Of a DNA stretch of 41,252 nt, positions 36,085 to 38,115 are shown piece by piece. The position numbers and the translations under genes are program-made. Every line of letters begins with the position of its first letter. Within the stretch, counting starts at the first letter, position 1. The stretch is taken from sequence record SRR31156797_136. One strand, 5' to 3'. The notes below the pieces were generated by a model. It was not told the DNA's origin, ran no database searches, and was given only the letters and a program-made list of their open reading frames with translations.

Positions 36085-36186
36085 CTGGTCGTCAGTCGCT
36101 AGTTATAATATAAATAATGCTTAACGCGAGAACCTATATTTTCTAACTAGTGACTAATTACTCACCTATAGAGCCATAGAGCCTAT
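36085..36186 (-). repeat. RHS-core-inserted palindromic element, long copy (102 nt)
   Basis: ATAGGCTCTAT(GGCTCTAT)AGGTGAGTAA...TAGTCACTAGTTA-loop-TAACTAGCGACTGA-CGACCAG; ends similar to the three short copies. Confidence 0.7.
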
Positions 36187-36375
36187 ATTATAATATCCAG
36201 CATTCATATAGTGAAGACCTTTTCCGCTGTCCATATTTGCTCCAGTGAGCTTAACATCGTTTAGTATGGAGATTTCATTAGTAGTAGTCTCACAAAAATG
36301 CCGAATAATCATAATTTGATACATACTGTCCAGATGAGTCTAGTATTCTGGTTGTGCTGTTTCTGAAAACGTATA
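36187..36375 (-). pseudogene. RHS-repeat core fragment (copy A)
   Basis: About 180-bp paralogue of 37802-37985; reads TTRILDSSGQ...GANMDSGKGLHYMNAGYYN. Confidence 0.75.
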
Positions 36376-36961: not shown

Positions 36962-37599
36962 TTTTAATCTTCTTTCTCTTTTAACAACCAGTAATAGTCC
37001 AAACCTGTATAAACACCAACAGCTGGTGTATATCCAATTACTTTTGCTGATGCACCACCTGGTCAAAAACAATAGTCGACCATTGTTCCTGCAGTACTCC
37101 CTCCATCAATAAACCATTTCATATAATCAATCTCATTTTTCACTCCCTCTCCCTCTCCTAAAGTCACTGATGGAGATATTGGTAGTGAAATACCTTTCAT
37201 CCACCCAATCCAGCATGAAGATAATTCGCATCAATCCTTTTTGAAACACTAATATATTTTGAACACCCTACTTTTGCATATAGGGAACCTGCTGGTGTTA
37301 CTATAGGTATTGTTCCGCATAAACTAGCATCAAAAACAAAATCATTATTAGCAATATCCTCCAATCTTTTCTCCTAAATAAACGTTACCATTACCTTCTG
37401 TATTTATATTTAGATTATCATATACTGATTCCTCATTGATAGCATTTGGTTCGATATTGTCAATAGTCTCAATCGCTATAGACTGAAATAATTGTATAAA
37501 AGCTTCTATTATCTCGGATATGCTAGGCACAACACTACCAACTATCTGCACATCAAAATCCACTCTCATATGCCCCGTAGGATCGATATAGTTAATGGA

Positions 37600-37620
37600 C
37601 TGGTCGTCTATGCAACCTAG
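37600..37620 (-). repeat. RHS-core-inserted element, internally deleted copy (21 nt)
   Basis: CTAGGTTGCATAGACGACCAG between the NN and (P>S)INYIDP codons. Confidence 0.75.
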
Positions 37621-37661
37621 ATTATTACCAGTGTATGTATACAGGTTCTGCGTCCTTTGGG

Positions 37662-37702
37662 CTGGTCGTTTGCTTCGCAAACTGCTCGCCTATGCAGCCT
37701 AA
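37662..37702 (-). repeat. RHS-core-inserted palindromic element (41 nt)
   Basis: TTAGGCTGCATAGGCGAGCA-GTTTGC-GAA-GCAAAC-GACCAG between the YE and P codons. Confidence 0.8.
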
Positions 37703-37756
37703 CTCATACGCGCTGCCCTTGTAGCTGTCCTGAGTAATAAACCTACCAGTATTGGG

Positions 37757-37801
37757 CTGATCCTAAATGTTTCACATTTACTGCTCACCTATGCAGCCAA
37801 T
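37757..37801 (-). repeat. RHS-core-inserted palindromic element (45 nt)
   Basis: ATTGGCTGCATAGGTGAGCAG-TAAATGT-GAA-ACATTTA-GGATCAG between the YYN and PNTGRF codons. Confidence 0.8.
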
Positions 37802-38115
37802 ATTATAATATCCAGCGTTCATATAGTAAAGACCTGTTCCGCTGTCTATATTTGCTCCTGTAAACTTAACATCGTATAGTATGGAGCTTTCATTAGTCTT
37901 TGTCTCTCCAAATGCTTCATAACTATAATTTGATACGTACTCTCCAGATGAATCTAGTATTCTAGTTGTACTGTTTCTGTAATCATAATCATACTATAAT
38001 AACTGCGAATTATGCGCATGATAAAAGGTGTATGAAATTACCCTGTAAAGCTTGTTTCAAGGGGGGGGGTAACAGAAATCATTTAAATGCCAGAGGTAAA
38101 ATGAAAAATCAATAA

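Follow-up and report, generated by a model that had tools for sequence, protein, structure and literature searches.

Small palindromic inserts that interrupt RHS-type DNA in a stretch of 41,252 nucleotides (sequence record SRR31156797_136; this whole stretch is called the window below) belong to a repeat, here named E, that is mobile DNA: sites that are otherwise identical can have it or lack it, it is arrayed and it inserts into itself. E is a dispersed repeat of about 37–45 nt with a patchy distribution across genomes, occurring in one Bacillota clade and in a few spirochaetes and numbering from one to hundreds of copies in a genome. This miniature element is not tied to RHS genes. On balance we lean towards the reading that the inserts are a very small, non-autonomous, REP-like mobile element that moves as single-stranded DNA, presumably with an HUH enzyme acting in trans.

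As used here, E denotes GGYTGCATRGSCGAGCAG followed by a variable hairpin and then by CGACCAG. The copies in the window and their host modules are listed in Table 1. An initial annotation made from the letters of the sequence had described three related minus-strand inserts of 45, 41 and 21 nt within positions 37600–37801, and its coordinates and lengths were right.

Table 1. Copies of E in the window and the orphan RHS modules that hold them
Feature	Position	Strand	Length	Details
E copy 1	37757..37801	minus	45 nt	Leader ATT at 37799–37801; core GG..CAG at 37757–37798
E copy 1, 3' flank	37754–37756	minus		CCC, canonical Pro codon; site N^P by intact homologues
E copy 2	37662..37702	minus	41 nt	Leader TTA; core at 37662–37699; CCC flank at 37659–37661; site E^P
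E copy 3	37600..37620	minus	21 nt	Hairpin-less; leader CTA; site N^(P)
E copy 4	36085..36186	minus	about 102 nt	Same ends; RHS position as for copy 1, in the second orphan module
Orphan RHS module 1	37348..37985	minus		End of RHS core, interrupted three times, plus C-terminal tail; frame broken
Orphan RHS module 2	36187..36372	minus		Paralogous to module 1; ends at E copy 4

The 18-nt left arm, with up to three mismatches, occurred three times in the window against 0.03 occurrences expected, and none of 100 shuffled sequences reached three. A covariance model (R1) was built from scanned copies of E, with up to 150 candidates scored per genome; against it, copy 1 scored 48.8 bits (37755–37798), copy 2 scored 61.8 bits (37660–37699) and copy 4, which carries an 8-nt duplication in its 5' arm and a long inner hairpin, scored 16.3 bits (E 0.72). 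The fold z-score of copy 4 was −4.04, and the single-sequence folds of the three short copies were no better than those of shuffled sequences (z −0.9 to −1.6). Copy 3 is a deletion form in which two near-identical 7-mers, CGAGCAG and CGACCAG, have been joined, and a hairpin-less form of the same kind is present in another genome (G001, locus L074). Its internal dinucleotide is GA and its flank is the TC of the odd TCC codon, the pairing still being kept. Neither the arm scan nor R1 detected further copies in the 41-kb window, and none lies outside the RHS remnants, in agreement with the initial annotation.

The host of the three short inserts was identified from the unchanged stretch of 61 residues just upstream of copy 1 (37802–37984), which gave phmmer matches to RHS-type proteins. 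When this stretch was used as a query against 1.84 billion representative proteins, an exhaustive search returned 419 matches at E≤0.001, and a word-based protein search with the same stretch returned no match. The closest intact relatives among the matches listed read ..YYN-P-NTGRF.., ..AYE-PW-TQNLY.. and ..GNN-P-VNY.DPTGH, and the first site was occupied by Pro in 48 of the 69 proteins that carried the motif pattern (69 among the 150 listed of the 419 matches). The motifs of the intact relatives therefore place all three inserts immediately 5' of a canonical Pro codon, as had been proposed from the sequence. The remnant lacks its own start codon, stop codons lie within copy 1, a shift of frame comes after copy 2 and TCC stands at the third Pro codon, the last two features having been noted correctly at the outset; it is a decaying orphan module. 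The two modules aligned with 81 % mean column identity overall (alignment A3), visibly higher in the RHS part, and the RHS homology of module 2 ceases at the 3' end of copy 4. Because a GGTGAG variant is common to both, copies 1 and 4 most likely descend from a single insertion older than the duplication of the module. A run of about ten C residues (window positions 38059–38070, minus strand) was also observed just upstream of the first orphan RHS module, where slippage could vary its length.

Copies of E are about 36–46 nt long and have a covarying stem. Five parts can be distinguished: a leader of 2–3 nt, usually YTA or TTW; GGYTGCAT; a guide-like motif of 3–4 nt, (T)RGS; an imperfect palindrome, in which CGAGCAG and CGACCAG enclose a freely varying, perfect stem-loop; and 2–3 bases, CCY in most copies, that are complementary to the guide-like motif. 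What the copies have in common is GGCTGCATAGGCGAGCAG, then the freely differing stem-loop, then CGACCAG, usually with CC after it. Across 31 distinct copies, both partners change in six of the seven pairs of the inner stem, with a covariation of 0.434 compared with 0.132 for shuffled copies; none of 500 shuffles was as high, and values did not exceed 0.087 when the partners were slid. The initial annotation was thus borne out in its claim that the inner hairpin covaries. The pairing that it proposed between an outer GGCTG and CAGCC found no covariation support, since GGATG variants of E keep CAGCC. The pairing that does covary is that of RGG, just 5' of CGAGCAG, with the CCY after CAG. The dinucleotide at positions 10–11 (GG in CATAGGCGAG), which lies just 5' of CGAGCAG..CGACCAG, can pair with the two bases that directly follow CAG in 105 of the 110 distinct copies, and among the copies with a dinucleotide other than GG the flank is complementary in 14 of 15 (GC/GC, CC/GG, TG/CA and GA/TC). 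The third base follows as well, TAGG being accompanied by CCT in 41 copies and CCC in 30, and TGGG by CCC in nine and CCT in two.

In many spirochaete copies the short flank is repeated on the left (CCTTW..CCTTW, GCTTA..GCTTA or GGTAA..GGTAA), and in a nested pair (L040) the TAGC of the inner copy is exactly complementary to the left flank, GCTA. Spirochaete sites carry a direct repeat of 3–5 nt (CCT..) on both sides, whereas none is present at the RHS sites or at the Bacillota sites of type A described below. Because of this flanking repeat, several registers are possible at spirochaete sites; the filled and empty pairs fit several registers, and the ends of E are fixed only to within ±3 nt. 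At the RHS sites the CC after E belongs to the target and a 3-nt leader (ATT, TTA or CTA) is brought by E; two of the three empty type-A sites point instead to the arrival of both TA and CC with the element.

The distribution of the family was surveyed by an exact-pattern scan of one genome per prokaryote species, in which the two arms were separated by a gap of 5–35 nt. This yielded 46 loci, almost all of them non-RHS and almost all from Clostridia/Bacillota and spirochaete metagenome-assembled genomes, including multi-megabase contigs; two of the loci (L024 and L046) look like chance matches. With R1 at E≤0.01, at least 143 copies were counted in G001, 71 in G003, 31 in G005, 26 in G004 and five in G002, and one contig of G001 (298,591 bases) held 18. 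Two spirochaete genomes contained 58 and 24 copies (R1, E≤1e-4), and four other genomes contained 1, 2, 5 and 12 (R1). Among relatives of G001, E was present in 27 of 61, mostly the nearer ones; it was found in only two of 121 genomes drawn from across the phylum of G004.

Most copies are intergenic, as exemplified by one contig on which eight of 14 matches lie fully outside crude ORFs that occupy 87 % of its length. The 128 ORFs examined within 2 kb of a copy are ordinary, unrelated genes. Orientation relative to genes is not constant, and both orientations occur: on one contig of G001, E is antisense to its co-oriented neighbours in seven of seven cases, and in the window it has the same orientation as the RHS remnant. 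The reverse complement of E is found directly upstream of ribosome-binding sites in spirochaetes, where, of about 24 independent sites, at least 12 were judged by reading to be directly upstream of a start codon on the opposite strand. Searches of a plasmid collection and a phage collection gave no match to E, and viral contigs gave a single match, on a contig equal in length to that of L007 and at the same position; on the L007 contig, which is also present in the viral collection, E abuts the ribosome-binding site of a recombinase gene. Rfam 15 gave nothing at E in the window (E≤10), in three loci (E≤0.01) or in 20 loci (gathering score). The core sequence of E was absent from the literature searched, and keyword searches for REP-like repeats in spirochaetes and Clostridia returned no description of it.

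Evidence that E moves comes from comparison of sites. Filled and empty versions are known for three kinds of site, so that the empty alleles which the initial annotation had named as a check do exist. One kind of site is the 5' end of an IS91-like element, which consists of a tyrosine recombinase gene followed by a Y2 HUH transposase gene and occurs in the spirochaetes G067 and G068 and in genome G003. In one copy, CTCCTTTAG represents the empty 5' end; three other copies have 42–43 extra bases exactly at that place, corresponding to E plus a CCTTT repeat. Because an IS91-like copy without E exists, E is an insertion and not the end of the IS91-like element. A second kind of site is a REP-like hairpin, TAGGGACAGG-TCGCGA-CCTGTCCCTA, which is empty at two sites and filled at four, where 42 nt lie between TCGCGA and CCTG. 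The third kind is found in G001, in which E occupies the apex of larger palindromic repeats, and of one of these, the type-A palindrome, three empty copies are present. Differing hairpin variants of E were found at one kind of site, and one variant at differing kinds of site. Head-to-tail arrays of E with a period of 42–46 nt are frequent (L043, L065, L103, L108, L118 and L134), and copies also occur nested inside the hairpin of other copies (L040 and L043).

Several observations concern the surroundings of E. The IS91-like element (L141:1-843, L138:3-1734 and L129:2-487) shows about 90 % protein identity between genomes and often lies at contig ends. The palindromic repeats of G001 with E at the apex are of four kinds, measure about 100–200 nt and include one kind that is sometimes without E (examples at L025:3700-3960, L076 on the minus strand, L060:17440-17700 and L074 on the minus strand). 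In the low-copy genome G002, a shared repeat that extends over about 180–330 nt surrounds four of the five copies of E (L004:982-1023, L011, L016 and L020), one of which aligned only in part; this repeat consists of various small hairpins in a row and contains no long ORF. The segment that holds E at L006:100-200, L034:180-290, L021 and L026 we take to be the 3' part of a 5S rRNA; here E is located at a helix tip just before the terminator, and the upstream part seems to be broken by other small palindromic inserts. Rfam identified no 5S gene at these loci (E≤0.01). In a comparison of two Oceanispirochaeta genomes (L009:2600-4600 and G066:C1:3285132-3286996), the segment on one side of E is inverted and the other genome is without E; as the region is rearranged, the pair was ruled out as an orthologous empty site.

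The clustering of copies in RHS cores, from which the initial annotation had derived a family tied to such cores, is, among the loci examined, peculiar to the window. Among 144 pattern matches at all the loci examined, RHS motifs within 300 nt were found solely at the window's own, and a metagenome scan for junctions between an RHS motif and E gave one match, which was non-RHS. When the inserts are set aside, the core segment contains five CC dinucleotides, three of which are occupied by an insert, and the RHS region of the window is AT-rich (GC 0.32–0.34). The clustering is most simply explained by insertion into unconstrained DNA with rare CC targets, together with the duplication of one module, and no RHS-related function needs to be invoked. 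The RHS remnant of the window is then decaying DNA that has been colonized by a genome-wide repeat.

Three options had been offered at the outset for the nature of the inserts, and the first, a target-specific, non-autonomous mobile element possibly mobilized by a Y1 or RAYT enzyme, is the best supported. Insertion polymorphism, high copy number and the guide-like pairing with the flank favour it; against it, the enzyme was not found, and none of the 22 Y1_Tnp (PF01797) loci examined, of 32 listed, was flanked by E. At one of these loci a copy scoring 26 bits lies downstream, and at another a neighbouring ORF contains a match of 20 bits. A phyletic correlation between Y1 and E that appeared on ten genomes (six of six high-copy and none of four low-copy genomes) vanished on 61 relatives of G001, where Y1 (Pfam) was present in 21 of 27 E-positive compared with 25 of 34 E-negative genomes; PF01797 had no match in four genomes with 1–12 copies of E. 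Longer versions with the same ends enclosing a transposase, another check named in the initial annotation, were not encountered: no full-length IS with E-like ends was found at the 22 Y1 loci, and no half-sites by transposase genes in about 1 Mb of loci. No transposase recurred among the 128 neighbouring ORFs, and a test for strand bias by local GC skew was not significant (39 versus 31, p=0.40). Two further observations concern hairpins other than E. Canonical-looking REP hairpins with a 5' GTAG are present in G067/G068 (L113:1831-1860, L136:2739-2770 and L109:1479-1550), and in G003 similar GTCCC..GGGAC hairpins lie on both sides of a Y1 gene (L051).

A mechanism can be proposed in which E would move as single-stranded DNA through an HUH enzyme (Y1, IS200/IS605- or RAYT-like) supplied in trans, because E has, in miniature, the guide and imperfect-palindrome layout of IS200/IS605 ends. 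The internal RGS motif would select the cleavage or target site, CCY, by base pairing, and such targeting by an internal motif would explain why copies land next to CCY. In spirochaetes the targets would be the CCY in the antisense of the Shine–Dalgarno sequence (ctCCTTT) and the loops of other hairpins; in the window they would be the Pro codons of the AT-rich, decaying RHS remnant. Insertion of a copy behind its own 3' end would give arrays. Taken further, E may represent an undescribed class, an ultra-small, self-guided single-stranded DNA transposon in which one imperfect hairpin serves as both ends, a 3-nt guide sets the target (CCY, or RGG on the other strand), spread between Bacillota and spirochaetes is horizontal and the enzyme is not encoded alongside; this wider proposal is put forward tentatively, as possible rather than probable. 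If it is true, the preference for the antisense of ribosome-binding sites puts a hairpin directly upstream of many genes.

Other explanations account for parts of these data. Were E a classical cut-and-paste MITE with GGCTG/CAGCC ends, mobilized by a DDE transposase and generating a target-site duplication of 3–5 bp, then the CCTTW direct repeats around most spirochaete copies, the inserted length of E plus one repeat and the inverted 5-bp ends of the commonest variant would all be expected. We nevertheless consider this unlikely, as the flanking repeat covaries with the internal motif of E, which a duplication made by a staggered cut would not do. In addition, the three RHS sites and the type-A sites show no duplication, the inverted ends are not maintained in the GGATG variants, which keep CAGCC, and the neighbouring 128 ORFs include no recurring transposase. 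Still less probable is that E is a site for serine or tyrosine recombinases, that is, an attachment or crossover site, which would include the shuffling of orphan RHS cassettes that was the second option of the initial annotation. The hints for such shuffling are circumstantial, namely that the RHS homology of module 2 stops exactly at E and that an inversion breakpoint lies beside E between two related spirochaete genomes, but any dispersed repeat can sit at rearrangement breakpoints and RHS association is absent elsewhere (one of 144 matches, and a junction match that was non-RHS). Large serine recombinase genes do adjoin E in three genomes (L076:3344-5604, L007:4920-6370 and L019:1853-4808), the one at L076 lying between two inverted copies. 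As a partner this enzyme was rejected, since the L076 recombinase has no close relative in the E-rich genomes G003 and G004 (E≤1e-20), and a recombination site would leave copy numbers of up to hundreds and the tandem and nested copies unexplained. A tyrosine recombinase encoded beside E in spirochaetes was likewise rejected as a partner when it proved to be the first gene of the IS91-like element.

A role as RNA, whether as a cis-regulatory structure, a small ribozyme or an intervening sequence that is removed or bypassed, would agree with the covarying hairpin and with the position of the reverse complement directly upstream of spirochaete ribosome-binding sites. It is very improbable, given that orientation to genes varies, that the neighbours are unrelated housekeeping genes, that sites are polymorphic for presence and the distribution is patchy, and that Rfam gave no match. 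For removal on expression, the third of the options offered initially, nothing spoke in favour, as copies lie in both orientations and mostly between genes, and the RHS frame that is broken up in the window lacks a start codon and contains stops and a frameshift. That the inserts are an assembly artefact is hardly credible. No RNA run was listed for this stretch, and the one DNA run found (window positions 37594–37747) gave no reported contig across the insert junctions and for that reason confirms neither the joins nor excision; but the same architecture recurs at 46 loci from many independent assemblies, some with multi-megabase contigs, and the depth pattern in the run is that of a high-copy repeat, with short E-matching contigs at a depth of 266–570 compared with 2–6 for the flanks. 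E-like repeats must therefore be very abundant in that sample.

E would rank among the smallest elements whose mobility is directly documented, by filled and empty sites, by nesting and by arrays. It would likewise furnish evidence from nature that a guide programmes the choice of target, since subfamilies that differ in their internal trinucleotide are found beside flanks that match; IS608 has reportedly been retargeted in the laboratory on the same guide principle. Annotation is affected too, as E interrupts genes, occupies ribosome-binding sites, breaks up assemblies and goes undetected by Rfam.

Among known small elements, the palindromic elements of Rickettsia, which are about 100–150 bp long and lie in frame inside functional protein-coding genes, are likewise palindromic and located within coding genes. 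In the window, in contrast, E lies in the broken remnant of a gene, where two of the three short inserts disrupt the frame or bring in stop codons. Integron attC sites were considered and rejected, as the ends of E lack the conserved R''/R' core sites that mark the two ends of a folded attC site, and no cassette array accompanies the copies adjacent to tyrosine recombinase genes. The small dispersed repeats (SDRs) of Nostoc-type cyanobacteria are said to have been described by Elhai et al. in 2008 as very small mobile repeats that insert at specific short sequences. E is like them in size and behaviour and differs in the phyla that it occupies and in sequence; SDRs are described, in the available part of the source, as not found outside Nostocaceae (PMC5861425).

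REPs (repetitive extragenic palindromes) measure 21–65 nt and are characterized, in the part of the source that was available, as species-specific in sequence (PMC6006769). At the foot of their hairpin they carry GT[AG]G, which, according to excerpts of two sources, is thought to select a nearby CT cleavage dinucleotide by pairing (PMC6006769; PMC8266576). E resembles REPs, whose Y1 enzymes are TnpA-REP/RAYT, in being small, high-copy and mostly intergenic and in having a hairpin that is preceded by a conserved short motif, although at the equivalent place E has AT[AG]G (CATAGG/CATGGG) and not GTAG. It differs in that its core (18+7 nt) is near-identical across Bacillota and spirochaetes, compared with the species specificity ascribed to REPs in that excerpt; in that its stem is free to vary and the flanks are fixed; and in its clean presence or absence at sites, its nesting and its head-to-tail arrays, with none of 22 Y1 loci flanked by it. 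As far as the same excerpts go, the ends of IS200/IS605 elements are read by Y1 HUH transposases through base pairing between the cleavage site and a guide that immediately precedes the foot of the hairpin on its 5' side (PMC6006769; PMC8266576). E similarly forms an imperfect palindrome with a guide 5' of the foot, its pairing with the flank being seen by covariation only, and is found next to a short specific sequence; its insertions into loops suggest a preference for hairpins or single strands. In E, by contrast, both ends appear to be provided by a single hairpin, the element measures about 40 nt in all and no parent IS was seen at the Y1 loci or in about 1 Mb of loci examined. By this comparison, the kinds of element that appear closest to E are REPs and miniature IS200/IS605 derivatives and, in size and behaviour, the SDRs of Nostoc.
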